Shown piece by piece: positions 23,384 to 64,000 of a stretch of DNA of 64,000 nucleotides. The stretch's first letter is position 1, and the number at the start of each line of letters is the position of its first letter. Below the pieces are notes generated by a model that was given only the letters and a program-made list of their open reading frames with translations, was not told where the DNA came from and did not search any database. Position numbers and translations under genes: made by a program. Source of the stretch: Candidatus Eiseniibacteriota bacterium (GTDB lineage: Bacteria > Eisenbacteria > RBG-16-71-46); the NCBI GenBank assembly GCA_963707915.1, contig OY970178.1, forward strand, positions 1,664,001-1,728,000, read 5' to 3'.

Positions 23384-23932
23384 CTAACTGCTTTCGACCC
23401 AGCGCATCCCGCTCACCGGATCCGCCTCCCGGCGGCGGTTCAGGCCACTCAACCATGCCGGAGCGGAAGGTTCTTCCCGGCGCCGGCGGGACCGCCGGCG
23501 CGTGGCGCGATCGGGACGCAGCAGCGTGCGCACGGCGTCCTGGGCCAGGCGCGTGCGGCGCGCGGCGCGGGCGACGGGACGACCGCCGCGCACCTCGCGG
23601 ACCACGGCCTTGAACGGATCGCGGCGGCGGCCGGCGAGCGCGAGCGCGAAGCAGGCGCCCGCCAGCGCGGCCAGCAAACCCGCCGCGCCCACGGCCGCGG
23701 GCGGGGTCTGCAACTCCGCCGCCAGCGCCGCGACCACCGGGGCCAGCCGGTCCCGGAGCGCGGCGGCCGCGACGACGGCGCCATCCCACAGCGCCGGGAC
23801 GCGCGCGACCATGCCGTCCCACGCCGCGGAGCCGGCGGCGAGCCACGACGCGGGAAGACGGCCCGGCAGGTTCCCGCCCAGCACCATCAACACCACCGTG
23901 ACGAGGACCGCCGTCCAGAGCTTCCTTCTCAT
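23384..23932 (-). CDS. hypothetical membrane protein coupled to fliA
   Basis: ATGA overlap with the fliA stop; hydrophobic segments; C-terminal VARAARRTRLAQDAVRTLL (HTH-like). Confidence 0.6.
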   Translation of the reverse strand: MRRKLWTAVLVTVVLMVLGGNLPGRLPASWLAAGSAAWDGMVARVPALWDGAVVAAAALRDRLAPVVAALAAELQTPPAAVGAAGLLAALAGACFALALAGRRRDPFKAVVREVRGGRPVARAARRTRLAQDAVRTLLRPDRATRRRSRRRREEPSAPAWLSGLNRRREADPVSGMRWVESS

Positions 23933-24693
23933 GGCTCACCTCCGTTGCGCGTGATGGCCTCCCGCAGGCGCGCGAGCGCCCGCGTCCGGATCTGGGAGAC
24001 CCGTGACTCGCTGACGTGCAGGACGTCACCGATCTCCTTCAGGCTCAACTGTTCGTAGTGGTAGAGCGACAGGACCAGCCGGTCCTTGGCGGGGAGCGCG
24101 GCGAAGGCCTCGTGCAGCCCCTCCAGCGCCTCGGCCCGCGCCAGCTCGACTCCCGGGTCCGTCGACTCGGTGTCGGGGATGGTCTCGGAGAGCAGCGCGT
24201 CGCCTTCCTCCCCGGCCCCGCCGGGCGCGTCGAGCGCCAGCAGCACGCGGCCCTCGGCCTGCTCCGCCCAGCGCCAGTAGGTGTCCATGTCCACGCCCAG
24301 TGCCCGGGCCACTTCCGTCGCCGCCGGGGCGCGCCCGAGGCGCTGCGCGAGGTCGTCGCGCACGCGCGACAGCTGGCGTCCGCGGGTGCGCACCGAGCGC
24401 GGCACCCAGTCCTGGGCGCGCATCTCGTCGAGCATCGCACCGCGGATGCGCGGGACCGCGTAGCTGCTGAACGCCAGCCGGCGCTCGAGTTCGAAGCCCT
24501 CGAGGGCCTGCACCAGCCCGAGCGTGCCGGCGCTCACCAGCTCGTCGAGCTCGATCTCGCGCGGCGCCCGCCGGATGATCTCGCGAGCGGCGTGGTGGAC
24601 GAGGCCGATGTATCGATCCAGCAGCTGCGAGCGGGCCTCCGGATCACCGTGGGTCCGGTAGCGCTCCCAGAGGGCGTTGTTCAGGTCGGTCAT
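23929..24693 (-). CDS. fliA: RNA polymerase sigma-28 FliA
   Basis: MTDLNNALW...ELVSAGTLGL...FSSYAVPRIRGAMLDEMRAQDWVPRSVR...LKEIGDVLHVSESRVSQI. Confidence 0.96.
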   Translation of the reverse strand: MTDLNNALWERYRTHGDPEARSQLLDRYIGLVHHAAREIIRRAPREIELDELVSAGTLGLVQALEGFELERRLAFSSYAVPRIRGAMLDEMRAQDWVPRSVRTRGRQLSRVRDDLAQRLGRAPAATEVARALGVDMDTYWRWAEQAEGRVLLALDAPGGAGEEGDALLSETIPDTESTDPGVELARAEALEGLHEAFAALPAKDRLVLSLYHYEQLSLKEIGDVLHVSESRVSQIRTRALARLREAITRNGGEP

Positions 24694-25548
24694 GGCACGC
24701 TCGTCGTGAAGGGGGACCGGGGCGGGGCGGCGCACTCGCCGTCCGCCTCGGACGTCCTGGCTCCGGCCAGGCGGGCGACGGCCTCGTCCACCGCCGGCGG
24801 TGCTGCGGCGAGGAGCGCCCCGGGCCGGCGGATGTCGGCGCGCAGCCCGTCGTCCTCCGGCAGGGCACCCAGGTAGCTCGAGCTCCCGGCCCAGGAAGCG
24901 CGAGGCGGCGAGGCGCAGGCGCTCGAAGGCGGCCAGCCCCTCCTCGTCGCTCCGGGTGCGGTTCACGAGGACGGAGACCGGCAGGGCCGGGAGCTGGAGG
25001 CTCACGATCTTGATCAGCGCGTAGGCGTCGCTCAGCGCCGTCGGCTCCGGCACGGTGACGACCACCAGCCGGGTGGCGTTCATCGAGGCGACCCGCACGA
25101 CGTTGTCGATACCGGGCCCGCCATCCACGACGACCGTCTCGAAGTCCTCGTAGAGGGAGCTCAGCTGGTGGTGGAGCCGCGCCTGGTCCACCCGGCTCAG
25201 GGCGTAGAGCGACTCGGCGCCGGAGTCCGCGGGCAGCAGCCAGAGGCCGGGGCCCACGGCCACCGGGAGCTGCTCCAGGTCGGCCTCGCCGGTCAGCAGG
25301 TCTTCGAGCCGGCCGGCGGGACGCACGCCCAGCAGGATGTGCAGGTTGCCCTGGTTCTGGCAGCCGTCCACCAGCAGCACGCGGCGGCCGTTCCGGGCCA
25401 GCGCGGTGGCGAACAGCGCCGCGAGCACCGACTTCCCCACGCCTCCCTTGCCACTGCCCACGACGATCACCTCCGCGCCGGGCGATCCCGCCCGCGGGCG
25501 GCACGGTGCCTGTTGCGCGAGGCTGCGAAGGGCGGCGGCCTGGTCCAT
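24690..25548 (-). CDS. flhG: MinD-like flagellar number regulator FlhG/FleN (frameshift near 24878)
   Basis: MDQAAALR, SGKGGVGKS, PEPTALSDAYALIK; the shifted frame continues YLGALPEDD to a TGA overlapping the fliA ATG. Confidence 0.92.
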
Positions 25549-26405
25549 CACCGCGCTCCCGTCACGGCGAACTCGCCGCGCGGCGTCCGCGACGCGGAGC
25601 CCGCGCCGGCGACCGGCGCGGCGGACCGCAGGTCGGCGGGCACCTCCTGCCCGTCGGCCGCCCAGCGCACGGGCAGCCCGCAGGAGACGGCGAGGTCGAA
25701 CAGCGAGCTGTCTCCGGGCAGCTCGTCCAGCTTGGTCGGGAGCAGGTGCGTCACGCCCCACTCCCGGTAGTCGTCCACCAGGCGGCGGGCGAGGCGCGTC
25801 TGCAGTCCCGCGGGCAGCGTGAGGTGCACCTCGTGCGCCGCCAGCTCGGCCAGCGCGGCGCGGGTGGCGGCCACGTCGCCGCGGGCGGCGGGCCCGCGAC
25901 CCGCGGTGTCGACCAGCACGACCTCGCACCCCGAGAGCCGCCGCAGCGCGCGCTTCAGCTCGCGCGTCTCGTAGACGACCTCCAGCGGGATGCGCGAGAG
26001 CTCGGCGTAGATGCGCGACTGCTCGACCGCGCCGATGCGGTAGGTGTCGAGGCAGAGCAGGCCGACCGAGTGTCCGCCGAACACCTGGGGATGGTTGGCG
26101 AGCTTGGCGATGGTCGTGGTCTTGCCGGCACCGGTCGGCCCGACCAGCGCGACGACGAGCGGGCCGCGGCCGCCGGCCGCCGGGTCGATGCCCGGAGCGG
26201 CGCCGGCCGTGGTCCGTGCCGGCAGCGGCGCGTGGCGCGGCCGGGGGAGCGAGCCGGCCGAATCGGCGGCCACCAGCTCGAAGCCGATGACCGGGTCGGC
26301 CGAGACCCGGCGCGACGAGACCACGATCGCGTCATCGCCGAACACCGCCTGGGCCTGGGCGAGCAGCGTGGAGAAGTCGGGTCCGCGGAAGGTCTCAGTC
26401 GGCAC
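25548..26405 (-). CDS. flhF: SRP-family GTPase FlhF (short)
   Basis: GPTGAGKTTTIAKLA, DTYRIGAVEQ, DTAGR, TKLDE, GQEVPADL. Confidence 0.95.
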   Translation of the reverse strand: MPTETFRGPDFSTLLAQAQAVFGDDAIVVSSRRVSADPVIGFELVAADSAGSLPRPRHAPLPARTTAGAAPGIDPAAGGRGPLVVALVGPTGAGKTTTIAKLANHPQVFGGHSVGLLCLDTYRIGAVEQSRIYAELSRIPLEVVYETRELKRALRRLSGCEVVLVDTAGRGPAARGDVAATRAALAELAAHEVHLTLPAGLQTRLARRLVDDYREWGVTHLLPTKLDELPGDSSLFDLAVSCGLPVRWAADGQEVPADLRSAAPVAGAGSASRTPRGEFAVTGAR

Positions 26406-28574
26406 GGGTCAGCTCCCATGTGCTGATGTTCTGGATGGGGGTCTGCGCCGGCAGCTCGCCGAGCGAGATCACCGGCAGACGGGGCAGGATGGGCTCCACG
26501 AGCCGGCGGATGCCGACGCGCAGGCCGGGGGGCGTCACGAGCGGCGGCACCTGGCCGTCACGGCGCGACGATTCGACGATGCGGTGGAGCGAGTGCAGGG
26601 CCGCGGTGAGCTCCTCGGGATCGAGGGTGCGCTGCCCTTCGCGGCCCCGCGGACTGAAGAGCTGCATCAGCCCGACCTCGAGCCGCGGGCCGACGGTGAT
26701 CGCCCGGATGGGCGCCTCGCCGCCGCCCAGCATCTGGACGATCACGGTCGACAGGGTGCGCCGGACGTGCTCGGTGAGGACTTCCGGGTCCTTGGTCTGC
26801 TCGGCCGCGTCGGAGAGCGCCTCGAGGATGCTCACCAGGTCGCGGATCGGCAGGCCTTCGCGCAGCAGCCGCTGCAGCACGCGGTGCACGACGCCCAGCG
26901 AGAGCTTGTTGGGGACGACGTCCTCGACCAGCGCCGGGTGGGTCTCCTTGAGCTCGTCGAGCATCTCGCGCGTGTTCTGGCGGCTCAGCAGGTCGGAGGC
27001 GTGCTCGCGGATGGTCTCCATGAGGTGCGTCGAGAGCACGGTCTGCGGCTCGACCACGTTGTACCCGGCGGCCTCGGCCTGGCCGCGCTGATCGGGCGAG
27101 ATCCACACCGCGGGCAGGCCGAAGCTGGGATCGGTCGTGGTCGTGCCCTCGATGGGCGTGGCACTCCCGGTGGTGTCGAGCGCGAGCAGGTGGCGCGGCA
27201 TCAGCGCGCCGCCCGCGACCCGCGCGCCGCGCAGCCGGATGACGTACTCGTTCGAGCGGGAGCTGGATGTTGTCGCGGATCCGCACCGCCGGCACCATCA
27301 TCCCGAGCTCGAAGGCCAGCTGCTTGCGCATGACCCGCACCCGCTGGAGCAGGTCGCCCTGCTGCGTCTCGTCCACCAGCGGCACCAGGGCGTAGCCGAT
27401 CTCGACCTCCAGCGGCTCGACCGCCAGCAGCTCCAGCAGCGGGGGCATGCCGGTGGGGAACTCGGTCTCCGTCGCCGCGCGGCGCCGCCGCCGCGGCCGG
27501 GGCCGACCGGCGGCGCCCGCGCATCGCGTAGGCCACCCCGGCCGACGCCGCCGCGAGCGCGAGGAAGGGGAGCATCGGCAGCCCGGGGACGACGGCGAAC
27601 AGCGCCAGGATCCCCGAGGCCGTCCACAGCGAGCGCGGGCTGGCCGTCAGCTGGTCCATGATCGACGAGGCCACCGGCGTGCCCGCCGACCCGTAGGTCA
27701 CCAGCAGGCCGGCCGCGGTGCTCACGATCAGCGCGGGGATCTGGGTCACGATCCCGTCGCCCACGGTGAGCGCGGTGAAGGTCGAGAGCGATTCCCGGGC
27801 GGTCATGCCGTGCTGGGTCATCCCGATGATGAACCCGCCGACCAGGTTGATGCCGGTGATGACCAGCCCGGCCACCGCGTCGCCCCGCACGAACTTCGCC
27901 GCGCCGTCCATGGAACCGTAGAAGTCGGCGTAGCGGTTGATCTCCTCGCGCCGCCGCCGCGCCTCGGCCTCGTCGATGAAGCCCGCGCCGAGGTCGGCGT
28001 CGATGCTCATCTGGCGGCCGGGCATCGCGTCGAGGGTGAACCGCGCGGCCACCTCGGCGACGCGTCCGGCGCCCTTCGTGATGACCATGAAGTTGATGAC
28101 GACCAGGATCAGGAAGATGACGAGCCCGACCACGTAGTTGCCGCCGATCACGAAGTTGCCGAAGGCGGCGATGACCTCGCCCGCGCGCCCGCTGCTCAGG
28201 ATGAGACGCGTGCTGCTCACGTTGAGGCCGAGCCGCAGCAGCGTGATGAGCAGCAGCAGGCTGGGGAAGATGCTGAACTCGAGCGGGTCGCGCGACGACA
28301 GCGCCACCAGCAGGATGATGATCGAGAGCGCGAAGCTCAGCGCCAGGCAGGCGTCCAGCAGGAACGCCGGCAGCGGCACGACCAGCAGGGCGACGATGCC
28401 GACCACGCCGATCGCGAGGTAGGTCTCGGCCGTCGAGGACAGCAGCCGGCGCCCGAGCGGCACCGCCGCCGCGGTGCCGGCGCCCGAGCCGGGCGTGGAG
28501 CGCCCGGCGGCCGCGGCCCCGACGGGCGTGCCGAGCACCGGGGCGACCGCGTTGGGAAGCGTCACGACGCTCAC
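26395..28574 (-). CDS. flhA: export gate FlhA (frameshifts near 27480 and 27256)
   Basis: RLGLNVSSTRLIL, RFTLDAMPGRQMSIDADL, FYGSMDGAAKFVRGD, then EIGYALVPLVD and RIRDN, then LLREGLPIRDL, spread over three frames. Confidence 0.96.
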
Positions 28575-30753: not shown

Positions 30754-31975
30754 CTACCGGAAGCTCGCGACGAGGTTCTGGACCACCAGCGTCCAGCCGT
30801 CGGCGAGCACGAAGAGGAGCAGCTTGAGCGGGAGCGAGATCATCACCGGCGGCAGCATGAACATGCCGAGGCTCATGAGCACCGAGGCCACGATGATGTC
30901 CACGACGACGAAGGGCAGGAAGATGACGAAGCCCATCTGGAACGACGGTGCGCAGCTCGCTGGTCACGAACGCCGAGACCACGACGAAGATGGGCAACTC
31001 CTCGACCGACTTGGCGTCCGAGGCGTGGCTCAGCTCGGTGAACAGGGTCAGGTCCTGCTCGCGCGTGTTCGCCAGCATGAACTCGCGGAACGGCTTGACG
31101 CCCTGCTCGTAGGCCTGGACCTGGGTCATCTGCCCGCCGAGGTAGGGCTGCAGCGCCTCCCGGTTCGCCTTCTGGAGCACGGGGTTCATGACCACGCCGG
31201 TGAGCAGCACGGTGAGGGCCACGAGCAGCTGGTTCGGCGGAACGGTCTGGGTGCCGAGCGCGGACCGCAGGAAATGCAGCACGATCAGGATGCGCGTGAA
31301 GCTGGTCATGAGCAGGAACATCGCCGGCAGCAGGGTGAGCACGCCGATGAACACGACCAGGCCGACCGCCCCCGACAACTGCAGGGCGTCCTTCCCCTCG
31401 CCCACGCGGATGTCCACGCGGGGGGCCGCCGAGCCGCCGAACATGCCGGCGGCCGCGCCCGCCGCCGGCCCACGCGCCGCGGGCGCCGGGATGGCGGTGG
31501 ACACGGCCGCGCGCTTCACGGCCGGCCGGGCCGTCGGCGCCGGTGCGGCGGCGGCCGCGCGCGGCGGCGTGGTGCGCGATGGCGCCTGGGCGTGCGCCGC
31601 CAGCGGGGCGGCGAGCAGCATCAGCACGAGCGCGGCGCGCCCCAGGAACGGCAGCCGCCACGGCCGGGTGAGCGACGCGGGGAGCCGCTCGGGCCCGGCT
31701 TCCAGCAGCCGGTCGCGCGCGGGCCCTTCGAGCTCGGTCAGCAAGCGGGTCCCGCCCTCGGCCAGGGAGACCACCAGCACGCGGTCGGCGACCTGCACGA
31801 CCGCGAGACCCTGCCGGGGCCCCAGGGGAACGCGCTGGAGGACGCGCAGGGGGACGCCGCGGCCGGACGGGGGAACGCCGCCCTGCATGCGCTGGACCAG
31901 TCGGAGCGCGAGCACGAGCACGCCGATCGTGGCGGCCAGGGCGCCGAGCACCCCGATGAACCCGGTGCCGATCAC
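30754..31975 (-). CDS. fliP: FliO-FliP fusion protein (frameshift near 30945)
   Basis: FliO-like N-terminus (TM + [27 protein letters not shown]) in frame with FliP ([48 protein letters not shown]). Confidence 0.9.
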
Positions 31976-38777: not shown

Positions 38778-39226
38778 TGGGCCCCGCCGCTGGCGCTGCG
38801 CCGGTTGCGCGCGACGCCGTCGATCTCGCTCTGCTCGTCACGCGAAGCCTCTTCGGTCCAGGCCGCGTGGCGCTTCTCGCGCAGCCGTTCCACGACCCGG
38901 CGCTCCACCCGCGCCCGGCTGAAGAGCTCGCGTTCCTGGCGCATCTGGTCGATCGCCGCCTGGTGCGAGAGCGCGGCCGAGTCCACCTCGCGCATCGCGG
39001 CCTCGATGGCGAGACGAAGGTTGTTGAGGGCGCCCGCGGTCGCCACGTTGTCGAGCACGCCGGCGATCTGCTCGCCGCAGTTGCCGAGCCGCTCGCTGGC
39101 GTCCTCGAGCGCCTGCCGCTGCGTCTCCTCCTTGCGCATCGCCTGGCCGAGGGCCTGCGCCCGTTCACGCTCCGCCGTGGAGCGGAGCTCGAGCAGGCGT
39201 TCGAGGCGGAAGACGAATCCCTTCAT
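38774..39226 (-). CDS. fliJ: export chaperone FliJ
   Basis: MKGFVFRLERLLELR...ERRVVERLREK...EQSEIDG. Confidence 0.92.
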   Translation of the reverse strand: MKGFVFRLERLLELRSTAERERAQALGQAMRKEETQRQALEDASERLGNCGEQIAGVLDNVATAGALNNLRLAIEAAMREVDSAALSHQAAIDQMRQERELFSRARVERRVVERLREKRHAAWTEEASRDEQSEIDGVARNRRSASGGAQ

Positions 39227-40580
39227 GCGGAGTCTCCCCGGTTCGGGACGGTCGCGAGGCCGGACAGCCGGTGCAGCTGCGCGAACGCCTCGTCCATGTC
39301 CGAGTGGTCGCTGGCGGTCTGCTGGAGAAAGGACCGCGTCTGCGTGCGCAGCGCGATCGCCCGGTCCACCATCGGGTCGGCGCCGGGCTTGTAGGCCCCG
39401 ACCGCGATCAGGTCCTCGTGCGAGTGGTGGGCGGCCTCGAGCTTCAGGAACTCGTTCGCGACCTCGAGGTTCCGGCTGCCGATGACCTGGTCGCGCACGC
39501 GGCTCACGCTCTCCAGGACGTCGATGGCCGGGAAGTGCTTGGCGTTGGCGAGCCGGCGCGACAGCACGATGTGGCCGTCGAGGATGGAGCGCGCCGCGTC
39601 GGCGATCGGCTCGTTGAAGTCGTCGCCCTCGACCAGCACGGTGTAGAGCCCGGTGATGCTGCCCTGCTTGGCCGTGCCGGCGCGCTCGAGCAGCCGGGGC
39701 AGCGCGGCGAAGACCGAGGGCGGGTAGCCCTTCGTGGTCGGCGGCTCGCCCACCGCCAGTCCGATCTCGCGCCAGGCCATGGCCACGCGCGTGACCGAGT
39801 CCATCATCAGCAGCACGTCGCGGCCGGTGTCGCGGAAGTACTCCGCGATGGTGGTGGCGACCAGCGCCCCGGTGGCCCGCACCACCGCCGCCTGGTCGCT
39901 GGTCGCGACCACGACCACCGAGCGGCGCAGCCCCTCGGGGCCGAGGTCGCGCTCGATGAACTCGCGCACTTCGCGTCCGCGCTCTCCGAGGAGCGCGATG
40001 ACGTTGACGTCGGCCGTGGTGTGACGCGCGATCATGCCCATCAGCACGCTCTTGCCGACGCCGCAGCCGGCCATGATGCCGATGCGCTGGCCCTTGCCCA
40101 GCGTGAGGAGCCCGTCGATGGCCCGCACGCCGGTGCCCAGCGGCTCGCTGGATGCGCGCACGCTCGAGCGGGTCGGGCGGGTTCGCGCTCAGCGCGCAGC
40201 GCCGGGTGGGCCCGAGCGGGCCCTTGCCGTCGATCGGGCGGCCGAGACCGTCGAGCACGCGGCCGACCAGGCGGTCGCTGGCGTTCGCGTACAGCGTGCG
40301 GCCGAGCGGGATGACGACCGCGCCCGGGTGGATGCCGTCGGTCTCGTCGAGCGGCATGAGCATGATGCCGCGCTCGTGGAAGCCCGACCACCTGGGCCAG
40401 GATGCCGTGGTGATCGTCGGGCGCGATGCGGCACACCTCGCCCACTCCCACCGGGAGCGGCGAGACCTCGACGACCTGCCCGATCACCCGCGTGACGCGG
40501 GCGCACGCCGTGAAGCGCGGCAGGGCCTCGACGTGGGCCAGCGCGTCCTCGAGCCAGGTGGTCAAGATGCGCTCACTCAT
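39223..40580 (-). CDS. fliI: export ATPase FliI (frameshifts near 40385 and 40150)
   Basis: GQRIGIMAGCGVGKS, GERGREVREF, MDSVTR, GEPPTTKGYPPS, DGHIVLSR. Confidence 0.96.
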
Positions 40581-41235
40581 ACTCGAGCCTCTCGTACAGG
40601 CTGCGCAGCGCGAAGTCAGTGCGGCCGTCCACGACGCGCAGGGGGCTCTCGACCACGAACCCGCCGCGCTCGATGGTCGGGTCGCCGAGCCACCGCACCG
40701 CGGTGCCCTTGCCGTCCTCCGCGGGCGCCGTCGGCCCGCCCTGCAGCACGGAGAGGTCGTCGGGGTGGAGCCGGACCTCGAGCTGGGGCTCCAGCGGCAC
40801 CAGCTCGAGCGCCCGTTCCACGAGCTCGCGCAGCAGCTCCGGGTCGGCCTTCACCTCGTGCTGGACGAGCTTGCGGGCGACGGCGAGCGCGAGGCCGTGC
40901 AGGTCGCGCGCCCGGTCGCGCACGAACGCGCTCTGCGCGGTGTGCAGGTACTCGCCCACGCGCCCGAGCGTCTCGAGCGCCACGCGCACGCGCTGCTCCG
41001 AGCGGCCGGCGCCGTCGCGCAACCCCTCGGCGTAGCCACGGTCGTAGGCCTCGTCGGCTTCGGTCCGGTGCGCCGCGCCGCCGGCGTCGGCCGGCGACCG
41101 GCCGTCCAGCTCCGGCAGCTCGAGTGCCCCGTCCTCCCGCCCGCCGAACGACGCGGCGATGACGGCCCACGGGCCGGCACCGCTCCCGAGCTCGGGCAGC
41201 ACGAGGGCCGACGGGGGCTCAGGCGATGATCTCAT
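40573..41235 (-). CDS. fliH: export protein FliH
   Basis: AYDRGYAEGLRDG (GxxxG), VRLHPDD, DPTIERGGFVVE...VDG. Confidence 0.9.
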   Translation of the reverse strand: MRSSPEPPSALVLPELGSGAGPWAVIAASFGGREDGALELPELDGRSPADAGGAAHRTEADEAYDRGYAEGLRDGAGRSEQRVRVALETLGRVGEYLHTAQSAFVRDRARDLHGLALAVARKLVQHEVKADPELLRELVERALELVPLEPQLEVRLHPDDLSVLQGGPTAPAEDGKGTAVRWLGDPTIERGGFVVESPLRVVDGRTDFALRSLYERLEYE

Positions 41236-42257
41236 CGTTGACCCCGTTCTTGCGGATCATGATCTCGCCGGACTGCTCGAGCGCGCGCACGACCTCGATG
41301 ATGTGGGTGTGGGCGGACTCGACGTCCCGGACACGCACCGGGCCCATGACCTCGATCTCCTCCTCCAGCGCGCCCGCCGCGCGTTCGGACATGTTCGTCG
41401 TGATGTGCTGCTTGAGGTCGTCGCTGGCCGCCTTGAGGGCGAGCGCCAGCTCCTTGGTGTCCACGTCGCGCAGGACCCGCTGGATGCCGCGCCCGTCGAT
41501 GAGCAGCAGGTCCTCGAAGACGAACATCAGGCGCCTGGATCTGGCCGGCGATGTCGGAGCTGCGCTGGCCGATGGCCTCCAGCAGCTGCTTCTCCAGCGA
41601 TCCCGGGGCGAAGTTCAGCAGCTTGGCGACCGCCTCCGGCCCGCCGCTCAGCGTCATCTCCTCGGTCAGCGTGAGGTCGGTCTTGCTGCTCAGCCCGGTC
41701 TCGACCAGCGCCAGCATCTCGGGCGAGATCTTGTCCATCCGCGCGACGCGGTAGAGCACGTCGCCGGCCAGATCGAGGTCCATGGCCTCGACCACCTTGG
41801 AGGCCTGGCGGACGTCGAGATGGGCGAGGATGAGCGCGATGGTCTGCGGGTGCTCGCCGCGCAGGATCCCGGCCAGCACCTCGGGCGCGGCCTTGCGCAG
41901 GCGCTTGAGCCCGGAGTCCACCATCTGCTCCTGGATCCGGTCGAGCACGGTCCGGGCGCGCGAGGCGCCCAGCGCCGTCTCGAGGATCTGCTGGGCGTAC
42001 TCGACGCCGCCCCGCGCCACCGACTCCACCGCCTTCGAGACGTGCTGGAACTCCTCCAGCACGGCCGTCACGACATCGCTGCCGACCGAGGGCATCGCGG
42101 CGATCTCGCGCGTGACCATCTCGACCTCGCCCGCGGAGAGCGTCTTGAGGACCCGCGCCGCGCTCTCGCTGCCCAGGGCCATGCAGAGCACGGCGCCCTT
42201 CTGGGCACCGGTCAGGGCCTCGTTGGCCTTCGAGCGGAGGTTGACCGGCTTGGCCAT
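41219..42257 (-). CDS. fliG: rotor protein FliG (frameshift near 41535)
   Basis: LTGAQKGAVL, GGVEYA, EHPQTIALILAHL, MFVFEDL, NMSERA, GPVRVRDVE. Confidence 0.96.
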
Positions 42258-44048: not shown

Positions 44049-44309
44049 TCAGCCCTTCACGTCGACGCGCTGGCCGAGCGGGCCGGGCGCCGCGCCGGGG
44101 CGCGCGGTGCGCGGCCCGTAGGTGAGCGGACCGAGCGCGCTCTGCTGGGCGAAGAACTCGCGCTCCTCGGCCGTCAGCAGGTCGAGGAACGAGGACTCCT
44201 GCGCCACCGGGGCGGGCGCGCCCGTCCGCGGCGCCGGCACCGCCGGGCGGACCGGCAGGTGCACCGGCCCGATGCGATCGAAGGGGGAAGCGGGACCCTG
44301 GACGTTCAT
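44049..44309 (-). CDS. hypothetical protein between flgC and fliE
   Basis: Fills the gap exactly; FLDLLTAEEREFFAQQSALGPLTYG...LGQRVDVKG. Confidence 0.75.
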   Translation of the reverse strand: MNVQGPASPFDRIGPVHLPVRPAVPAPRTGAPAPVAQESSFLDLLTAEEREFFAQQSALGPLTYGPRTARPGAAPGPLGQRVDVKG

Positions 44310-45321: not shown

Positions 45322-46688
45322 CTACTCCTCCACCGCCCTGGCGCCGGGCCGGAGCTTGTTGCGCAGCGTGCGCTCGCTGATGCCGAGCAGTTCGGCCGCG
45401 CGCGTGCGGTGGCCGCCGGTCGCCGCGAGCGCGCGCTCGATGGCGATCTGCTCGAGCTCCTTCAGGTTGATCGGCGCCGCCGCGGCGTCCCGCGCCGGCG
45501 CGGGGGCCTCGGGTCGGAACCGACCCCCGGGACCTCCCTCAAGGCCGCGGGCAGGAGCTGGCCGCTGCGGCACAGGATGACCGCGCGCTCGATGACGTTG
45601 GCGAGCTCGCGGATGTTCCCCGGCCAGGACCGTCGCTGCAGCAGCTCAAGACTCTCGGGCGGGACCTCCGGCGGCCTGACCCCGAGCGCGGCCGCGGCGT
45701 TGCGGACGAAGTGCTCGGTGAGCAGCGGGACGTCCTCGAGCCGCTCGCGCAGCGGCGGCGTGCGGATGGGCATCACGCTGAGGCGGTAGTAGAGATCCCG
45801 GCGGAAGCGGTTCGCCCGGATCTCCGCGAGCAGGTCCCGGTTGGTGGTGGCCACGATGCGAACGTCCACCTTCAGGAGCTGATGCCCGCCGACGCGCTCG
45901 ATCTCCTGCTCCTGGATCGCGCGGAGCAGTTTCGGCTGCAGGTCCAGCCGCATCTCCGAGATCTCGTCCAGCAGCAACGTGCCCCGGTGGGCGCGCTCGA
46001 AGGCGCCGTGGGCGCGCGTGTTCGCACCGGTGAAGGCGCCGCGCTCGTGGCCGAACAGGGCGCTCTCCACCAGGCCCTCCGGCAGGGCCGCGCAGTTGAC
46101 GGTCACGAACGGCTGGTCGCGGCGCGGGCTCTGGTCGTGCAGGGCGCGGGCGAACAACTCCTTGCCGGTGCCCGACTCCCCTTCGAGCAGGACGGTGGCC
46201 CGGGTCGGCGCCACGGCGGCAATCGTTTCCATGACCGCCCGCAGGGCCTCGCTCTCCCCCACGATGGTCCGGGGGCCCCGCAGGGAGCTCAACTCGCGCC
46301 GGAACTCGTCGTTCTCCCGGCGTAAGCGGTTGACCTCGAGCGCGTTGGTCACCGCGATGCGCAGCGTCTCCTGGCGCAGGGGCTTGGTCAGGTAGTCCAC
46401 GGCGCCGTGCCGCATCGAAAGCACGGCATGCTCGATGCTTGAGTAGCCGGTCATGATGATGACCGGGACCTCGCTCCCCTGCTGGCGGAGAGCCTCCAGG
46501 AGGTCGAGACCCGTGGCATCGGGCATCCGGTAGTCGGAGAGGATGAGGTCGGCGGGCTGCTGGGCGAGCAGCTTCAATCCCTCGTTCACGCTGCTCGCCA
46601 GGACGGCCTGGTGGCCGAATTCGGCCAGCGAGTGCTCGAGGGTGACGCCGACGGAGGGCTCGTCGTCGATGCAAAGGATCGTGGACAT
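45322..46688 (-). CDS. sigma-54-dependent response regulator (NtrC family, FlbD/FleR-like; frameshift near 45520)
   Basis: REC (ILSDYRMP), GESGTGKE, GAFTGA, LLLDEI, WPGNIREL; Fis HTH GHRTRAAELLGISERTLRNKL in the shifted frame. Confidence 0.93.
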
Positions 46689-46711
46689 GGTCCTCTCGGG
46701 TCTGGACGGGC

Positions 46712-46738
46712 TCAATCCGCACCGAATCTAACCGATAC
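46712..46738 (+). promoter_or_regulatory. sigma-28 promoter of flgL
   Basis: TCAA-N15-ACCGATAC. Confidence 0.8.
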
Positions 46739-46776
46739 TGGAAGCACTGTCACTATCTTCATCTCCAGGGGAACCC

Positions 46777-47643
46777 ATGCGAATCTCGACCCGGATGCTC
46801 CAGGAAAGCGCGCTCCGCTCCATCCGCGGGAACCAGGAGACGCTCGCCCGCCTGCAGGAACAGGCCGCGACCGGCCGCCGCATCCGCACGGTCTCGGACG
46901 ACCCGAGCGCCGCCACGAAGATCATGCGCTCGGAGGCCGAGGCCCGCGACTTCGACCAGCTCCGGCTCAACGGCGTCGAGGCCTCGACCCGCATGGGCAC
47001 CGAGGACGTGGTGCTGACCAGCGCCCGCAACCTGCTCAAGCAGGCGGCCGGCCTGGCCGTCGGCGTGGCCGGCCGGGACGCGGCGGATCCCCAGCGGCAG
47101 GCGATGGCCGCGGCCATCGGGCAGCTGCGCGAGGAGCTGGTGGCGTACGGGAACACCCGCGTCGGCAACGAGTACATCTTCGGCGGCGCATCCACCGCCA
47201 CCCCGCCGTTCCAGGCGGACGGCACCTACGTCGGCGACGACGTCGTGCGCCAGATCGAGATCGACCGCGGCGTCTTCATGCCGACGAACCACAGCGGGGA
47301 CGACGTCTTCTCGAGCGCCCTGCAGGGGCTCGCCGACCTCGAGCAGGAGCTGCGGACCGGGGACCAGGCGTCCATCAACGCGGCCATGAACGATCTCGCG
47401 TCGGCCGGGGACCAGTTGGTGCTGGCCCAGTCCGAGACCGGCACCCGCCTCCAGCAGGTCGCGGCCACGACCACCAGCCTGGCCGAGCGCACGGCGAACC
47501 TGCTCGACCAGCGCGACACGCTGCGCGACGTGGATCCGGCGGAGGCCTCGGTCAAGGTCATCATGGCCCAGACCGCACTCGAACGCGCCTACGCGGCGAT
47601 CGGCAAGGTCATGTCCACGAACCTGCTGGACTACCTGCGCTGA
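46777..47643 (+). CDS. flgL: hook-associated protein FlgL
   Basis: MRIST, ATGRRI..VSDDP, GNEYIFGG..T.TPPF, DVDPAE, NLLDYLR. Confidence 0.94.
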   Translation: MRISTRMLQESALRSIRGNQETLARLQEQAATGRRIRTVSDDPSAATKIMRSEAEARDFDQLRLNGVEASTRMGTEDVVLTSARNLLKQAAGLAVGVAGRDAADPQRQAMAAAIGQLREELVAYGNTRVGNEYIFGGASTATPPFQADGTYVGDDVVRQIEIDRGVFMPTNHSGDDVFSSALQGLADLEQELRTGDQASINAAMNDLASAGDQLVLAQSETGTRLQQVAATTTSLAERTANLLDQRDTLRDVDPAEASVKVIMAQTALERAYAAIGKVMSTNLLDYLR

Positions 47644-47652
47644 TCCGGAAGG

Positions 47653-47673
47653 GCCGCCCGCCGGGGCGGTTTT
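47653..47673 (+). terminator. possible intrinsic terminator after flgL
   Basis: CCGCCC-GCCG-GGGCGG hairpin followed by TTTT. Confidence 0.5.
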
Positions 47674-47746
47674 CCCCACGGCATTGCATCTCGCAACCCC
47701 GCCCCGCGCTTCGGGGTAGCCCGGCGCGGCCCCGGCTCCCGGGGCC

Positions 47747-47773
47747 TCAAGTTCCCGTCCGGCGCACCGAAAC
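47747..47773 (+). promoter_or_regulatory. sigma-28 promoter of flagellin
   Basis: TCAA-N15-ACCGAAAC. Confidence 0.75.
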
Positions 47774-47851
47774 TTCGTGGTGTCGGCACTGGGCCGGCAC
47801 CGGGCAGAAGGCCCGTCGGACTCCTCAGACCCTAGAAAGGGGTATGGGAAC

Positions 47852-48664
47852 ATGGCTATCAATGACATCACCCTCGCCGGCGGAATGCGCGGGAACCTCG
47901 TCAACCTCCAGCTCATCTCGGCGCTGCAGTCGCGCACGACCGAGCGGCTCGCGACGGGCAAGCGCGTCAACACGGCAGTGGACGACCCGGCGGCCTACTT
48001 CGCCGCGGCTGCCCACCGCAGTCGTGCCGGTGACCTCGCCGCCCGCAAGGATGCGATGGGCGAGGCGATCCAGGCCGTCAAGGCCGCGTCCCAGGGCATC
48101 GACGCCATCACCAAGCTGATCGAGCAGGCCAAGGGTCTCACCGCGGCTGCCCGCAGCGCGAGCACGGCGGACGCTGCCACGCTGGCCACCCAGTTCGACG
48201 AGCTCATGACGCAGGTCGACCAGCTCGCGACGGATGCCGGCTACAAGGGCACCAACTTCCTCGACAGCGCCGACCTGGTGGTGGACTTCAACGAGGACGC
48301 CTCTTCGTCCTTGACGATCACCGGTTTCGACGCCAGCTCCAGCGGTCTCGGCATCGACGCCGCGGCGAACAGCTGGGCGGCTTCGACCGACGTCGACGCG
48401 GCGGTGGAAGACCTCGACGCGGCTCTCAGCACCCTGCGCACCAGCGGCAAGACGCTGGCTTCGAGCTCGGGCGTGGTCACGACTCGGCAGGAGTTCACGA
48501 CCAACCTCATCAACACGCTGACGACAGGGGCCGACGCACTGACGGCGGCGGACACGAACGAGGAAGGCGCGAACATGCTGGCCCTGCAGACCCGGCAGCA
48601 GCTCGGCGTCGTCGCGCTGCAGCTGTCGAACCAGGCGCAGCAGAGCATCCTCCGGCTGTTTTAG
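47852..48664 (+). CDS. fliC: flagellin, alphaproteobacterial type (270 aa)
   Basis: DITLAGGMRGNLVNLQ...RLATGKRVNTAVDDP, DAGYKG.N.L, V.FNED, ADTNEEGANMLALQTRQQL...QSILRLF. Confidence 0.95.
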   Translation: MAINDITLAGGMRGNLVNLQLISALQSRTTERLATGKRVNTAVDDPAAYFAAAAHRSRAGDLAARKDAMGEAIQAVKAASQGIDAITKLIEQAKGLTAAARSASTADAATLATQFDELMTQVDQLATDAGYKGTNFLDSADLVVDFNEDASSSLTITGFDASSSGLGIDAAANSWAASTDVDAAVEDLDAALSTLRTSGKTLASSSGVVTTRQEFTTNLINTLTTGADALTAADTNEEGANMLALQTRQQLGVVALQLSNQAQQSILRLF

Positions 48665-48689
48665 TCCGGATGAGATGAAGGTCCGGGAC

Positions 48690-48717
48690 GGGGCGGCGGG
48701 TGAAGACCCGCCGCCCC
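48690..48717 (+). terminator. 12-bp hairpin after flagellin (no U-tract)
   Basis: GGGGCGGCGGGT-GAAG-ACCCGCCGCCCC. Confidence 0.55.
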
Positions 48718-48805
48718 CATCGGGCGCCCGCAGCGAATGAACCGTGGGGACCGGGGCTCGTTCTCCGTCCGCCCGTCCCGCCACCAGCAACCCTGAAGGA
48801 CTTCC

Positions 48806-49195
48806 ATGGCTCTCCGACTCACCCTCAGGCCCCACGAGCGTGTCATCGTCGGCGGCGCCGTCATCCGCAACAGCGAGTCGCGTTGCGAGCTGCTGATCGA
48901 GAACGAAGTCCCCGTGCTCCGGGAGCCCGACATCCTGAGTCCGAACGCCGTCCGCACGCCTTGCGAGCGGATCTACCTGGCGCTCCAGCTCATGTACGTG
49001 GACCAGGAGCGCTCGGCCCAGCACCAGGTGACCTACGAGGAACTGGTCTCCGAGGTGCTGCAGGCCGCCCCCAGCCTGGCCCCCTCGCTGCAGGCGATCG
49101 AGGAACAGGTCGGCGCGGGCCGCATCTACCAGGCGCTCAAGGGCGCCCACGGGCTGCTTCACCTCGAGCGCGAGCTGGTGCCCGATGTTCAATAG
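48806..49195 (+). CDS. flbT: flagellin translational regulator FlbT
   Basis: MALRLTLRPHERVIVGGAVIRN...VLREPDIL...TPCERIYLALQLMY...YQALK..L...E. Confidence 0.93.
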   Translation: MALRLTLRPHERVIVGGAVIRNSESRCELLIENEVPVLREPDILSPNAVRTPCERIYLALQLMYVDQERSAQHQVTYEELVSEVLQAAPSLAPSLQAIEEQVGAGRIYQALKGAHGLLHLERELVPDVQ

Positions 49196-49562
49196 CGCCC
49201 GGCAGGCGTACGAACAGGGCACCAAGACCGCCAGCTCGAGCCGCCAGCTGGAGGCTGCCGCCCTGTTCAAGTGCGCCCGCATGCTGGAGTCCTGCCAGCG
49301 GGACTGGAACGCGCCCAGCCGGGATGAGGCGCTGGACGCGGCCTTGCGTCACAACCTGCGTCTCTGGACGCTGTTCCAGGCTGAACTGGTCCAGCCGGAG
49401 CGGGTGATCCCGGCGGACATCCGGATCAACCTGTTGAGACTCAGCAGGTTCGTGGACAAGCGCACCTTCGAGCTGATGGCCGACCCCAACCCGCAGAAGC
49501 TGCAGGCGTTGATCGACATCAACCGCAACATCGGGTCCGGGCTCTCCGCCCCGGTCCCCTGA
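49185..49562 (+). CDS. flaF: flagellin regulator/chaperone FlaF
   Basis: AY...SSRQLEAAAL.KCA..L...AL..NLRLWTLFQ.EL...IRINLLRLSRFV...LIDINRNI.SGL. Confidence 0.92.
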   Translation: MFNSARQAYEQGTKTASSSRQLEAAALFKCARMLESCQRDWNAPSRDEALDAALRHNLRLWTLFQAELVQPERVIPADIRINLLRLSRFVDKRTFELMADPNPQKLQALIDINRNIGSGLSAPVP

Positions 49563-49608
49563 CCGACGCGTTTCCGGCAGGGAAGCCGGCAACTATTGCC
49601 GACCCTTC

Positions 49609-49635
49609 TAAAGTCGCTCAAGAGGGGACCGATAA
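49609..49635 (+). promoter_or_regulatory. sigma-28 promoter of flgM
   Basis: TAAA-N15-ACCGATAA, near-consensus. Confidence 0.88.
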
Positions 49636-49731
49636 TCCGGGTAAGGCCGAAGCGGCCGGACCACCTGCAGGGTACCCCGCCCTGCCTGGCGGACTTCCGG
49701 CCCGGCACCCCGGTCTGCAAGCGAGAAGGCC

Positions 49732-50070
49732 ATGACCATCCAACCGACGAAGCCTGGCTCGACGCCCCAACCGGGCGCCAACCGGCTCGACAGGAACGCA
49801 GCGCTCTCGCCCGTGCGCCCCGCGGACACCCCGGCTCCCGAGGGGACCGGCTCGACGCCAGACAAGATCCAGATCTCCGAAGCTGCGCGTGGACTCCAGG
49901 AACAACTGCAGAACCGGCTCGAACTCGTCGCCCAGCTTCCTCCCGGGCGTCTCCGCGAAGTGCTCGAGCGACTCAACAGCGGGTTCTACGACCGGCCGGA
50001 AGTCCGCAGGGCCGTGGTCGAGTCCATCGCAGAGGAACTGGGCCCGCCGAAGGCCCCCGGCATTCGCTGA
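49732..50070 (+). CDS. flgM: anti-sigma-28 factor FlgM (divergent)
   Basis: Low-complexity N-terminus, DKIQISEAAR, RLREVLERLNSGFY; sigma-28 promoter upstream. Confidence 0.75.
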   Translation: MTIQPTKPGSTPQPGANRLDRNAALSPVRPADTPAPEGTGSTPDKIQISEAARGLQEQLQNRLELVAQLPPGRLREVLERLNSGFYDRPEVRRAVVESIAEELGPPKAPGIR

Positions 50071-55073: not shown

Positions 55074-57522
55074 CTACTCGAAGATGGAGAAGAAGAGGTC
55101 CACGTCCACCGTGCCGGAGAAGCCGTACAGCCCCGCCGCCGGGATGACGATCAGCGCGGGATCCTCCTCGACCAGGTACAGGTCGCCGTGGAGGAGACGG
55201 TATCCGGACTTCTCGAGGACCTCGTGCGGGAAGGTCTCGACCTGCTCGTTCCCGCCCGCGGCGCGCCGGTGCACGCGCACCCCGGTGAGCCGGAGCCGCT
55301 CGCCCGCGAGGCCGAGGGTCAGCCCGAAGCGCTGGATCGTGCCGCCGCTGACCTGCAGGCGGATCCGGTGCCAGAGGCACCCGCGGTTGTTGAGCCGGTA
55401 GGTCTCGACGCGCGCCTCCTCGGCGCGGAAGCCCAGGCCCGAGTCGTGGTAGAAGACGAGGTGGCGCGGCGGCGCGGCCGAGTCGAGCGCCTCCGGCCTC
55501 ACCGAGCGCAGGAAGATCCCCGCCACGGCCTCGCCCATCGTGCGGCTGATGCCGTGGGCGAAGCCGAACGGCCAGTAGACCTGCCGGGGCAGGAGGCTCG
55601 CCAGCTGGTGCGCCGACAGGTGGCTCCGCTCCCACTCGTGCAGGTCCGGCACCTCCGTCATGCCGTGCGCCACCGCCGAGCCGAAGTTCTCGTCGTGCAG
55701 CCAGCCGCCGAAGAGATCGAGCTCGATCTCCAGCGGCCGGGCGACCGATCGCACGCAGATGGCCTGGTAGAGGTCGCGCAGGGAACGTGTCCCGCCGACG
55801 TCGTGGGTCGCGCGGTGCCGGGCCCACTCGCGCGCCCAGAGCAGGATCCCGCGCTGGACCTCGGCGATCTGGCGGCGCTGCTCGTCGGGGACGCGGAACT
55901 CGTCGAGGACCGGCCCGCCCCGCTCGTCGTGGCCGAGGGTCGTGCCGCAATCGGCCATCAGGCTCTGTTCGAGGATCTCCGGGGACCGGATGTAGGTGTG
56001 CGCCACCGCGACGGGTTGCCCGTTCGAGGCCAGCCAGCCCTCGACGATCGCGCCGCTCGCCTGGGCGACGTGCGCCCGGTCGCCGGTCACGAGGTAGAGC
56101 CCGTGGGTGCGGAGGTCGAGGCCCTCGCGGTCGAGGATCCGCTGCAGCGCCCCCTGGATGGTGCCGTGGTAGCCGAGGTCCACGACCGCGACGCGGCGCG
56201 GCCCGCCGGGGCCCAGCACGGCAGCGACGTGGGCGAGCAGGTTGCGACGGGCGGCGGCGCTGGCCCGGACGACCTTGCCGCGTGCCGCCGGGTCGCGTGC
56301 GATGCTGCGCACCAGCGTCACCGTCTGCTCCGGCGTGAGACTCGCCCCGGCGTCCACCCAGCGGCAGGTCGGCGGGGTCGAGCCCGAGTTGGTCCAGGAG
56401 CTCCGAGCACCGCTGGGCCGAGGGACGCGAGACGAAGCGCTCGAGCTCCGCCTCGCTGCCCTCGAAGATCGCCGCCTTGAGCACGACGAATCGCGAGACG
56501 AAGAGCTCGGAGGTCCGCAGGCCCGGCGCCTGCACGTCCAGGACCTGCTTGAGGAGCCGGCCCTCGCGCATCAGGCACAGGGCGTCCGTGAGTCCCAGCT
56601 CGCCGCAGCGCTCCGCGACCCAGTCGCAGAAGCCCGAGATCACCGGCCCGGCCACCCCGGCGCCCCAGCGCTCGTATTCGCTCCCGGCCTTGAACATGAC
56701 GCGCCCGCGCAGGGCGGTCAGCCCCGCGTCGTCGCCGGGCAGGTACGGGGAGCGCTGGCTGAGGTCCGCGGGCAGTTCGGTCCCCACCATGTCCTCGTAG
56801 GCCTCGGGGAAACGCGGGAGCCAGAAGCGCGCGAGCCCGAGGCTCTCGGGACCGTCGAGGTCCGCCTGGCGGCTGTCACCGACGTGCAGGATGCGGGCGG
56901 CGGGCACGCCGCTCTGCCCCAGCAGCACCTGGTGCAGCCCCCCCGGCTTGGAGCGGCCGTGCTCGCACGAGACGATGACGTGGTCCACGTCCACGCCGGT
57001 GAGCGCGCGGATCTGCCCGCTCCGCAGGTAGGTGTCCGAGACCAGCGCGGTCCGCAGGCCCCGCTCCCGGGCGCGGGCGAGCAGGTCGCGCATCGCGGGC
57101 TCGACCACCACGTGCCGCTGCTCGAGCGCGAACTCGAGCGCGGCCACCTCGGCGGGGCTCACGCCGTCGAGGAAGCCGCGCGGGAACTCCGCGTAGATGT
57201 CCGCCAGCGCGACCTCCCCGGCGGGCGTGCGGCGCCGCGCGCGTTCCTCCGCGCGGACGCGCTCGCGCACGAAGCTCTCGCGGCTCGAGGAGTCGAAGAG
57301 GCCGCCGGCCGCGCGCACCTCGTCGGCCAGCAGCAGGAAGAGGTCCGCCGGCTGCGGCACGCGGCGCCACACCAGCGTGTCGAAGACGTCGAGGCTCAGC
57401 AGGTCGAAGTCGCCCGAGTCCACCAGGTCGTACAGCTCGCGCAGCCGCGCGTCCATGCGCGGCGCGGGCGGGCGCGGCGCATCGACGGCCAGTGACGTGC
57501 GTTCGGTGGCGCTCAGGGCCAT
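55074..57522 (-). CDS. HAD phosphatase + PRT-like protein, putative ribofuranosyltransferase (frameshift near 56358)
   Basis: SLDVFDTLVWR, VSDTY, SK, HVGDS..AD; LMREG; VVDLGYHGTIQ; HDENFGS. Confidence 0.8.
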
Positions 57523-63749: not shown

Positions 63750-64000
63750 CGTGCGGGTCTCCCTGGCGATCGCGCGCATGCCCTGCCGCGGCGTGGTCGT
63801 GCCTGCGGCCCGGTGCCCGGAAACGCAACATCCGGGCCATGACGGACCGCAGGACGTGCCGCCCGCCTCGTGCCCGGGCCCGTTCGAATGCGGCAGGTGC
63901 TTCGCTGCGCGGCCGTTCGCACCGTCCGGCCGGGCACCCGGGTGCGCCGGACGCCGGTGGCCGCCCGGGCCAGCGCCCCGGAGGAGCGGGCTCGCCCCGG

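Follow-up and report, generated by a model that had tools for sequence, protein, structure and literature searches.

An FlbT/FlaF-Type Filament Module within a FliA-Containing Flagellar Cluster of an Eisenbacterium

Control of flagellin by FlbT and FlaF and filaments built without FliD are treated as an alphaproteobacterial specialty. We analyzed a 64,000-nucleotide stretch of DNA (hereafter the window), in which five plus-strand genes between 46.7 and 50.1 kb (flgL, one flagellin gene, flbT, flaF, and an open reading frame [ORF] for an FlgM-like protein) adjoin a complete flagellar cluster that includes flhF, flhG, and fliA. The host organism is an Eisenbacterium, the genome of which consists of one contig (3,623,634 bp; 94.84% complete; labeled G000, contig C1). 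On the basis of sequence phylogenies, its flagellin and FlbT are nested within the proteobacterial FlbT-type diversity, and there is strong incongruence with the tree of the export-gate protein FlhA, suggesting that the filament genes have a history different from that of flhA. The explanation that we favor is that the filament module was probably replaced by a horizontally transferred flagellin-FlbT-FlaF cassette, with the flagellar core and its FliA-based control being native.

A full-text literature search retrieved no paper on FlbT/FlaF in Eisenbacteria or on their combination with FliA. One paper (PMC13277936), as far as its accessible text goes, gives FlaF-FlbT only as a co-present pair, and the accessible part of its Table S1 holds FlbT, FlaF, and FlaY columns for 248 genomes, with no Eisenbacteria. 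The proteins themselves are known; what is new is the host lineage, the regulatory context, and the evidence for the exchange of a filament module as a unit.

The filament module and its distribution

The genes of the module, its neighbors, and the sigma factor gene of the cluster are as follows.

46777..47643, plus strand: flgL, hook-filament junction protein 3 (TIGR02550, 211.3 bits against a cutoff of 127.2; Flagellin_N and Flagellin_C matches)
47852..48664, plus strand: flagellin gene, 270 amino acids, the only one in the genome (family matches, tree, and synteny)
48806..49195, plus strand: flbT, 129 amino acids (PF07378, 133.6 bits against a cutoff of 27; E = 4.9e-39)
49185..49562, plus strand: flaF, 125 amino acids (PF07309, 102.5 bits against 23.6; E = 1.7e-29; NF009435, 109.4 against 91)
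49732..50070, plus strand: gene for a divergent FlgM-like protein, 112 amino acids (subthreshold PF04316 match, complex model with FliA, and synteny)
23929..24693, minus strand: fliA (sigma-28), 254 amino acids from MTDLNN, after flhF-flhG (TIGR02479, 217.6 bits against a cutoff of 189.6)

A preliminary description of this DNA, made from the sequence alone, had reported a single flagellin with the signature strings DITL and ADTNEEGANMLALQTRQQL, followed by flbT and flaF. Both strings are present in the flagellin, the two genes follow it, and a six-frame search of the whole genome returned two Flagellin_N matches, i.e., flgL and this flagellin. The flagellin ORF opens at 47777, while the real ATG, which is common to all relatives, is at 47852 (MAINDITLAG). 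The best NCBIfam models (NF009330, E = 7.6e-53; NF011295, E = 2.4e-48) describe flagellins of 750 to 890 amino acids, which the window flagellin matches at the termini only. FlbT passes PF07378 and misses the NCBIfam equivalog cutoffs (NF009432, 124.5 versus 153; NF001995, 100 versus 125); it is thus a member of the Pfam family and not a curated equivalog. FlaF, the start of which overlaps the end of flbT, belongs to the FlaF family: it exceeds the curated cutoffs, its gene adjoins flbT and the flagellin gene, and the synteny is conserved.

At an E value of ≤1, a six-frame search of the whole one-contig genome gave no match to FliD_C, FliD_N, FliS, or FliW (FliT was not searched), and no canonical flagellin was found elsewhere in the genome. 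Since the family search reads through stop codons, frame breaks should not hide a gene. The cluster had been described as having no fliD, fliS, fliW, or csrA. For the first three genes, this extends to the entire genome; csrA is present outside the window, the only copy in the genome lying 0.5 Mb away (C1:1186222-1186380).

It is conceivable, if somewhat doubtful, that the cap and chaperone functions are carried out by unrecognized proteins (i.e., a FlaY-type factor or a very divergent FliD as the cap, and FlaF in place of FliS), in which case the filament would not be cap independent; this would be compatible with a replacement of the filament module. Caulobacter had no FliD_C match in our control searches, and the accessible portions of two sources describe FlaY as its analogue of the FliD cap (PMC13277936; bioRxiv 10.1101/2024.09.25.614892). 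Likewise, FlaF appears as a FliS analogue in a table of PMC13277936 and as a flagellin secretion chaperone in PMC7591256, so far as these are accessible. The FliS proteins of FliD-type Eisenbacteria match Pfam weakly (E = 1e-3 to 1e-11), so divergent forms could be missed, and the cluster contains conserved ORFs without a family (e.g., an 85-amino-acid ORF at 44049-44306). Against such a cap, FliD_N, FliD_C, and DUF1217 are without a match in the genome, with nothing over the cutoff for DUF1217 or Flagellin_IN. No candidate emerged: an NCBIfam scan of a 20-kb alphaproteobacterial-like locus named no FlaY, and a 426-amino-acid ORF (55074-56354), which is found beside flaF in one relative, was rejected because it represents the C-terminal portion of a frameshifted haloacid dehalogenase (HAD)-like protein.

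We surveyed 201 Eisenbacterial genomes, in which we distinguish type A (FlbT/FlaF) from type B (FliD/FliS/FliW). FHIPEP, the family matched by FlhA, exceeded the cutoff in 66 of the genomes, FlbT was found in 31, FlaF in 37, FliD_C in 30, FliS in 30, and FliW in 45. FliD and FliS occur together in 29 genomes, and FliW is present in 29 of the 30 genomes with FliD. No genome combines FliD with FlbT or with FlaF; one genome (G122) holds FlbT plus FliS, the latter on a 1.8-kb contig. The window flagellin is 66 to 77% identical to its type-A relatives and 23 to 29% identical to the flagellins of FliD-type Eisenbacteria. Type A was found in families f1, f4, f8, f14, and f16 and type B in families f3, f5, f6, f10, f12, and f13; the FlbT/FlaF filament type is thus a trait common to five families of the phylum and is not peculiar to the genome studied here. 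In type B, the genes for FliW, FlgL, flagellin, FliS, and FliD cluster within a few kilobases of one another (e.g., G110 contig 89, 10450-15384).

Three side observations concern this survey. In family f2, FliW was found in eight of nine genomes and FHIPEP in none of the nine. One genome of a type-A family (G152, f1) carries FlhA, FliD, and FliS of the beta/gammaproteobacterial type (C70:13372-15339 and C94:11712-13192); its FlhA falls inside the beta/gamma clade in an FlhA tree, its contamination is rated at 4%, and either contamination or acquisition of a whole system would account for it. Second FHIPEP copies (locus L099 [G021:C12:53172-55436] and similar copies in f10) group on a long branch with a second copy from proteobacteria and may belong to a nonflagellar type III system.

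The FlbT module and FliD/FliS exclude each other in both groups sampled (both present in 0 of the 201 Eisenbacterial and 1 of 121 proteobacterial genomes), so the filament, its chaperone, and its translational checkpoint appear to move as one unit. In the Pseudomonadota sample (121 genomes), FlbT was found in 21 genomes and FliD_C in 79; FliD_C is absent from 20 of the 21 FlbT genomes, and the FlbT of the remaining genome (G217) contains a stop codon. FliA did not exceed the cutoff in any of 23 FlbT-bearing proteobacterial genomes, where the best FliA/WhiG matches (104 to 111 bits) lie in frames of 660 to 730 amino acids, i.e., the size of a primary sigma factor. Proteobacteria thus do not normally combine FlbT/FlaF with FliA, and the characterization of the window as a hybrid, with an FlbT-type flagellin module within a FliA context, is borne out.

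One exception was encountered among the proteobacterial genomes. G204, which is titled Thiobacillaceae, has the cassette plus a true FliA beside a beta/gamma-type FlhA. Its cassette (L051 4990-8820) comprises two flagellin genes (products 53 to 54% identical to that of the window), flbT (43%), and two flaF genes, and the genome has no FliD_C or FliS match. Flagellin gene 2 has a canonical sigma-28 promoter, CCTTAGAAAAGGAG 5' of the start, and flagellin gene 1 has a sigma-54-like site (TGGCAT-N5-TTGCT). If its contig is correctly binned, G204 is a second candidate for a filament swap.

The order flgL-flagellin(1-2)-flbT-flaF-flgM-like was found again in about 20 contigs from independent assemblies, beside fliF-fliE-flgC-flgB and a sigma-54 regulator gene. 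The near relatives of the FlbT are titled "Candidatus Eisenbacteria bacterium" (95% identity to L030); some related contigs were labeled Gemmatimonadota or Myxococcales by their submitters. An assembly artifact, either a chimeric joint or a contaminating contig, would be favored by the many frameshift-like breaks in the flagellar genes of this assembly. At least seven genes are split or fused between 23929 and 42254 and between 50190 and 53843, including flhG, flhB (28571-29675), fliP (30754-31400), fliI (39223-40577), fliG (41219-42254), and flhA:

26395..28574, minus strand: flhA, in pieces in this assembly (three FHIPEP pieces versus one intact match in the congener G059)
24694..26405, minus strand: flhG (MinD type) and flhF (SRP54 type), the 3' end of flhG running into the fliA frame, probably through an assembly indel

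Since the flhA of the congener is intact, we read these breaks as assembly indels, and the split genes are probably errors of this kind and not pseudogenes. The repeated gene order in independent contigs argues against a chimera, including one near 47.7 kb, where the preliminary description had considered a junction. Furthermore, the G+C content is even across the joint, and a single 56-kb contig of G059 carries both flbT and an unbroken flhA, with the 20-kb separation seen in the window. We give an artifact almost no credence.

Phylogenies of the filament and export-gate genes

The flagellin tree (56 rows, 270 columns; FlgL outgroup; quick method) joins type A with the G204 flagellins and with the terminal parts of large flagellins encoded by proteobacterial genomes that carry FlbT (support, 99). 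This group lies inside a clade with small FlbT-type flagellins (99), and the type-B Eisenbacterial flagellins form a separate clade (100). In the approximately unbiased (AU) test, holding all Eisenbacterial flagellins together was rejected (91 log-likelihood units; p = 6e-47), as was a proteobacterial FlbT-type flagellin group that excludes type A (41 units; p = 0.0016). The FlbT tree (careful method) is congruent with the flagellin tree: type A forms one clade (98/88) next to G204 (89/64) and close to the FlbT proteins encoded beside large flagellins, with named Rhodobacterales in other deep clades. Organism names are available for 15 of the 120 longer flagellin relatives listed; 12 of the named ones are alphaproteobacterial (8 Azospirillum or Azospirillaceae), two are named "Pseudomonadota bacterium," and one is named "Deltaproteobacteria bacterium."

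The FlhA tree (careful method; 38 rows, 685 columns) differs from these. Types A and B share one side of a branch (ultrafast bootstrap, 94; Shimodaira-Hasegawa-like approximate likelihood ratio test, 91; 93% of 200 bootstrap trees), and the proteobacterial FlbT-type FlhAs form their own clade (100/100), outside which the type-A FlhA falls. A placement of the type-A FlhA among the FlhAs encoded in the same genomes as the nearest FlbT proteins (two of them beside large flagellins) was rejected (127 units; p = 4e-38). A quick 56-row FlhA tree was dropped, since its free search was poor and a constrained tree scored higher. The preliminary description had held that congruent trees of filament and basal-body genes would speak against a replacement; the trees conflict. 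The FlhA result, together with the flhA-flhF/G-fliA spacing that G000 shares with the FliD-type genome G026, lends moderate support to a core flagellum native to the lineage.

The same trees bear on two accounts that need no transfer of a module. The FlbT/FlaF set might be equally old in Eisenbacteria, or both filament types might have been present in the ancestor of the phylum and have been inherited vertically. The FlbT of the window is only about 30% identical to those of named Rhodobacterales, so any transfer event would have been old; the module is found in five families and in more than one order; and the sister position of FlhA discussed below was not rejected. The type-A flagellins and FlbTs, however, form one shallow clade each, nested among deep proteobacterial clades, and the AU test rejects proteobacterial FlbT-type flagellins without type A (p = 0.0016), while FlhA rejects the nesting (p = 4e-38). 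FliA and FlhF/FlhG, moreover, are common to the FliD-type Eisenbacteria, with FliA found in none of the 23 FlbT-bearing proteobacterial genomes. We consider ancient vertical inheritance unlikely.

The entire type-A flagellar cluster might instead have come from an FlbT-type donor. The long stem of the type-A FlhA (0.84 to 0.91 changes per column) would fit such an origin, as would the fact that types A and B do not track the family and order codes (f3, which belongs to the same order as f1, is type B). However, the type-A FlhA groups with type-B Eisenbacteria (94/91) and is excluded from the subclade of the nearest flagellin/FlbT relatives; flhF, flhG, and fliA stand in the type-B order; and FliA is absent, at the cutoff, from the 23 FlbT-bearing proteobacterial genomes. 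A transfer of the whole system is thus very improbable.

Several points weigh against the replacement of the filament module by a transferred cassette. A tree in which the type-A FlhA is sister to the whole proteobacterial FlbT-type clade is only 5.3 log-likelihood units worse (AU p = 0.149), and in the 56-row set, with its long branches, such a sister tree scored 9.3 units above the quick free tree. The branch that joins both Eisenbacterial types (94/91) is not decisive, FlhA is the only core marker treed, and the groups for the AU test were chosen after the trees had been seen. The class of the Pseudomonadota genomes is inferred, the FlbT representatives are at 43 to 53% identity, and the direct donor may not have been an alphaproteobacterium. 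FliW is also kept in 2 of the 31 FlbT genomes (G090 and G140). The earlier proposal that an ancestral filament module was replaced is therefore upheld by the nesting of the filament genes within proteobacteria and by the rejection of the same placement for FlhA, and it is weakened by the sister position that FlhA leaves standing.

FliA control and the flagellin leader

We scanned the entire window for sigma-28-like sites (TAAA-N16-CCGATAA with up to two mismatches) and compared the result with 100 shuffles. Five sites were observed versus 0.32 expected, and five were reached in none of the shuffles. The promoters and the flagellin leader are as follows.

46712..46738, plus strand: sigma-28-like promoter 5' of flgL, TCAA-N16-CCGATAC (two mismatches)
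47747..47774, plus strand: flagellin promoter, a sigma-28-type variant (TCAAGTT ... CCGAAACT; three mismatches to the consensus)
47776..47851, plus strand: flagellin 5' leader, with the hairpin GTCGGC/GCCGGC (47782-47798), a CAGAA-loop hairpin (motif at 47804-47809), and CCCTAGAAAGGGG (47830-47842)
49609..49635, plus strand: perfect sigma-28 promoter TAAAGTC-N13-CCGATAA, 5' of the FlgM-like gene (no mismatch)

A sigma-28-type promoter had been assigned to the flagellin gene. All 21 of the related flagellin upstream regions that were aligned share its elements CT[CA]AAGT and CCGA at sigma-28 spacing, which supports the assignment; its three mismatches place it outside the scan. A similar sigma-28 site lies about 96 to 100 nucleotides 5' of the FlgM-like orthologue in 7 of the 15 gene-holding loci checked.

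Of the regulators previously listed for the cluster, FliA, FlhF, FlhG, and an FlgM-like protein are all encoded, the last below the Pfam cutoff for FlgM. The FlgM-like protein has a Pro/Ala/Gly-rich N-terminal half, and its gene lies in the flagellar cluster under a sigma-28 site, i.e., in the context of an flgM gene. We modeled its complex with FliA, which scored 0.88 (runs of 0.88, 0.88, and 0.89) versus 0.00 for the best control; a mark of 0.88 is reached by 116 of 157 solved complexes and by 2 of 215 mismatched pairs. Between runs, at least 91% of contacts coincide, the predicted local distance difference test (pLDDT) value of the partner is at least 64, and the modeled interface places the C-terminal helices of the FlgM-like protein (residues 68-107) on FliA residues 185-251 (sigma region 4). 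Since FliA-FlgM is a textbook pair, this result indicates likeness to that pair and not binding.

The genome's csrA gene is followed by a gene for an FlgM-like paralogue (G000:C1:1185861-1186380; L003 1140-1659, minus strand), with the same C-terminal G-F-Y-D-R...E-E-L motif and a subthreshold FlgM match. FliA/WhiG sigma factors (TIGR02479) were found in 199 of the 201 Eisenbacterial genomes, most of which are without a flagellar export gate, and flagellated type-A genomes mostly have one extra FliA/WhiG copy; because nonflagellated genomes also match, a TIGR02479 census was rejected as a marker of flagellar FliA in this phylum.

Of the 17 flagellin leaders folded, 16 display CAGAA in the loop of the second hairpin, and in all 17, part of the ribosome-binding site is paired within the third (CCCU-AGAA-AGGG, CCCTAGAAAGGGG). 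FlbT is missing from three flagellated relatives that keep FlaF (G008, G038, and G042). In two of their loci, L141 (G008:C107:40000-45297) and L142 (G042:C100:8000-15000), the order is flgL-flagellin-flaF-flgM-like, with flaF directly 3' of the flagellin gene; both leaders keep the promoter and the first hairpin, and both AGAA motifs are gone. Such relatives, which lost FlbT and retained FlaF, are natural experiments, and the AGAA-loop hairpins are a possible FlbT operator. How FlbT recognizes flagellin mRNA has long been an open question; since the leader is short and conserved, the recognition is directly testable.

Together, the promoters, the modeled FliA/FlgM-like complex, and the conserved leader hairpins lead us to infer a double checkpoint, which would consist of the FlgM-like protein and FlbT. 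Four observations tell against this control scheme: the 3' half of the -10 element of the flagellin promoter departs from the consensus; the FlgM-like ORF scores 11.4 bits versus the PF04316 gathering score of 25, and among 10 syntenic orthologues, 8 have subthreshold matches (E = 2.4e-4 to 0.39) and 25 bits is not attained by any; an RNAalifold consensus of the leaders contains only one compensatory pair; and the comparison with leaders without FlbT comprises two loci of one family.

The remainder of the cluster surrounds these elements. On the minus strand, the morphogenesis part runs flgB-flgC-fliE-fliF-fliG-fliH-fliI-fliJ-fliK-flgD-flgE-fliL-fliM-fliN, followed by the gate and control part, fliO-P-Q-R-flhB-flhA-flhF-flhG-fliA; rod, ring, flgN, flgK, motAB, and che genes come after fliA (fliN and motA were identified by direct reading). 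Further features are as follows.

45462..46715, minus strand: gene for a sigma-54-dependent response regulator (FlbD/FlgR/FleR-like; family searches), divergent from flgL and in the same place in relatives
48690..48717, plus strand: G+C-rich inverted repeat 3' of the flagellin stop codon, without a T run (sequence reading); possibly an attenuator or terminator

The 85-amino-acid ORF mentioned above (minus strand, between fliE and flgC) has no family match and is 46 to 80% identical to ORFs at the same place in related loci. Between 54516 and 63779, the minus strand encodes a response regulator, two tandem HAD-like proteins of about 900 amino acids (55074 to about 57700, frameshifted, and 59222-62026), and a double methyltransferase (62013-63779). 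In L031, the gene directly 3' of flaF encodes a homologue of the HAD-like proteins; these proteins and the double methyltransferase may modify flagellin.

Proposed sequence of events and comparison with known systems

Under the replacement that we favor, the ancestral set would have consisted of flagellin, the FliD cap, the FliS chaperone, and FliW, which persist in other families of the phylum. A self-contained flagellin-FlbT-FlaF cassette from the proteobacterial (mainly alphaproteobacterial) FlbT-type pool would have displaced this set through horizontal transfer, and the basal body, the export gate, and the FlhF/FlhG/FliA control would have stayed native. In the resulting system, the FlgM-like protein would sequester FliA until its own export by the hook-basal body; the freed FliA would then transcribe flgL, the flagellin gene, and flgM from the sigma-28-type promoters. 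By analogy with Caulobacter, FlaF would take over from FliS as the chaperone for flagellin export. FlbT, probably with unexported flagellin, would repress flagellin translation through the two AGAA-loop hairpins, one of which lies over the ribosome-binding site, and secretion would drain flagellin and lift the repression. The model for this step is the control of flagellin by FlbT and FljJ in Caulobacter, as presented in the accessible part of PMC7591256. Given that the genome has one flagellin only, the structural subunit itself would have to act as the corepressor.

These considerations suggest that the distal filament evolves together with its chaperone and translational checkpoint as an exchangeable unit apart from the motor. 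A broader version of this idea, to which we attach less than even weight, is that the cassette is portable and self-sufficient, includes the twin AGAA-hairpin leader, repeatedly displaced FliC-FliD-FliS-FliW (in Eisenbacteria and in Thiobacillaceae G204), and fits any host hierarchy, with flagellin as the FlbT corepressor in single-flagellin hosts and with no FliD-type cap.

The closest known counterpart is the FlbT/FlaF/FljJ system of Caulobacter crescentus. In both systems, flbT and flaF adjoin flagellin genes, the flagellin belongs to the same broad clade, FliD_C and FliS do not exceed the cutoff, and control through the flagellin 5' leader would be expected here by analogy. Unlike its Caulobacter counterpart, the module of the window lies in a cluster with FliA/FlgM-like and FlhF/FlhG genes in a nonproteobacterial phylum, with sigma-28-type (versus sigma-54-type) flagellin promoters, a single flagellin and hence no dedicated regulatory paralogue such as FljJ, and an FlbT below the NCBIfam equivalog cutoff. 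It thus shares with Caulobacter-type systems the FlbT-type flagellin and flbT/flaF without fliD/fliS, and it shares neither a hierarchy without FliA nor an FlhA of the same clade.

The FliW-CsrA-flagellin switch of Bacillus subtilis and Campylobacter jejuni ties flagellin translation to export through hairpins at the ribosome-binding site, much as may be the case here, and in type-B Eisenbacteria, FliW stands beside flgL, flagellin, fliS, and fliD, at the place taken by flbT-flaF in the window. The regulators (FlbT versus CsrA/FliW) and the loops (AGAA versus GGA) differ, and G000 keeps CsrA elsewhere and has no FliW. With the FliA-FlgM system of Salmonella and Escherichia coli, the window shares FliA, a candidate exported anti-sigma factor under a sigma-28 promoter, and sigma-28-type promoters of late genes. 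It differs from the FliC-FliD-FliS-FliT set of these bacteria in having no FliD or FliS match (FliT was not searched), in an FlgM-like protein below the family cutoff, and in what would be an added translational regulator (FlbT). Finally, the Fla1 system of Rhodobacter sphaeroides is described, in the accessible part of PMC7277832, as a flagellar system gained by horizontal transfer. In both cases, flagellar genes would have crossed between distant lineages; a whole system was transferred in Rhodobacter, whereas the filament module alone would have been transferred here.

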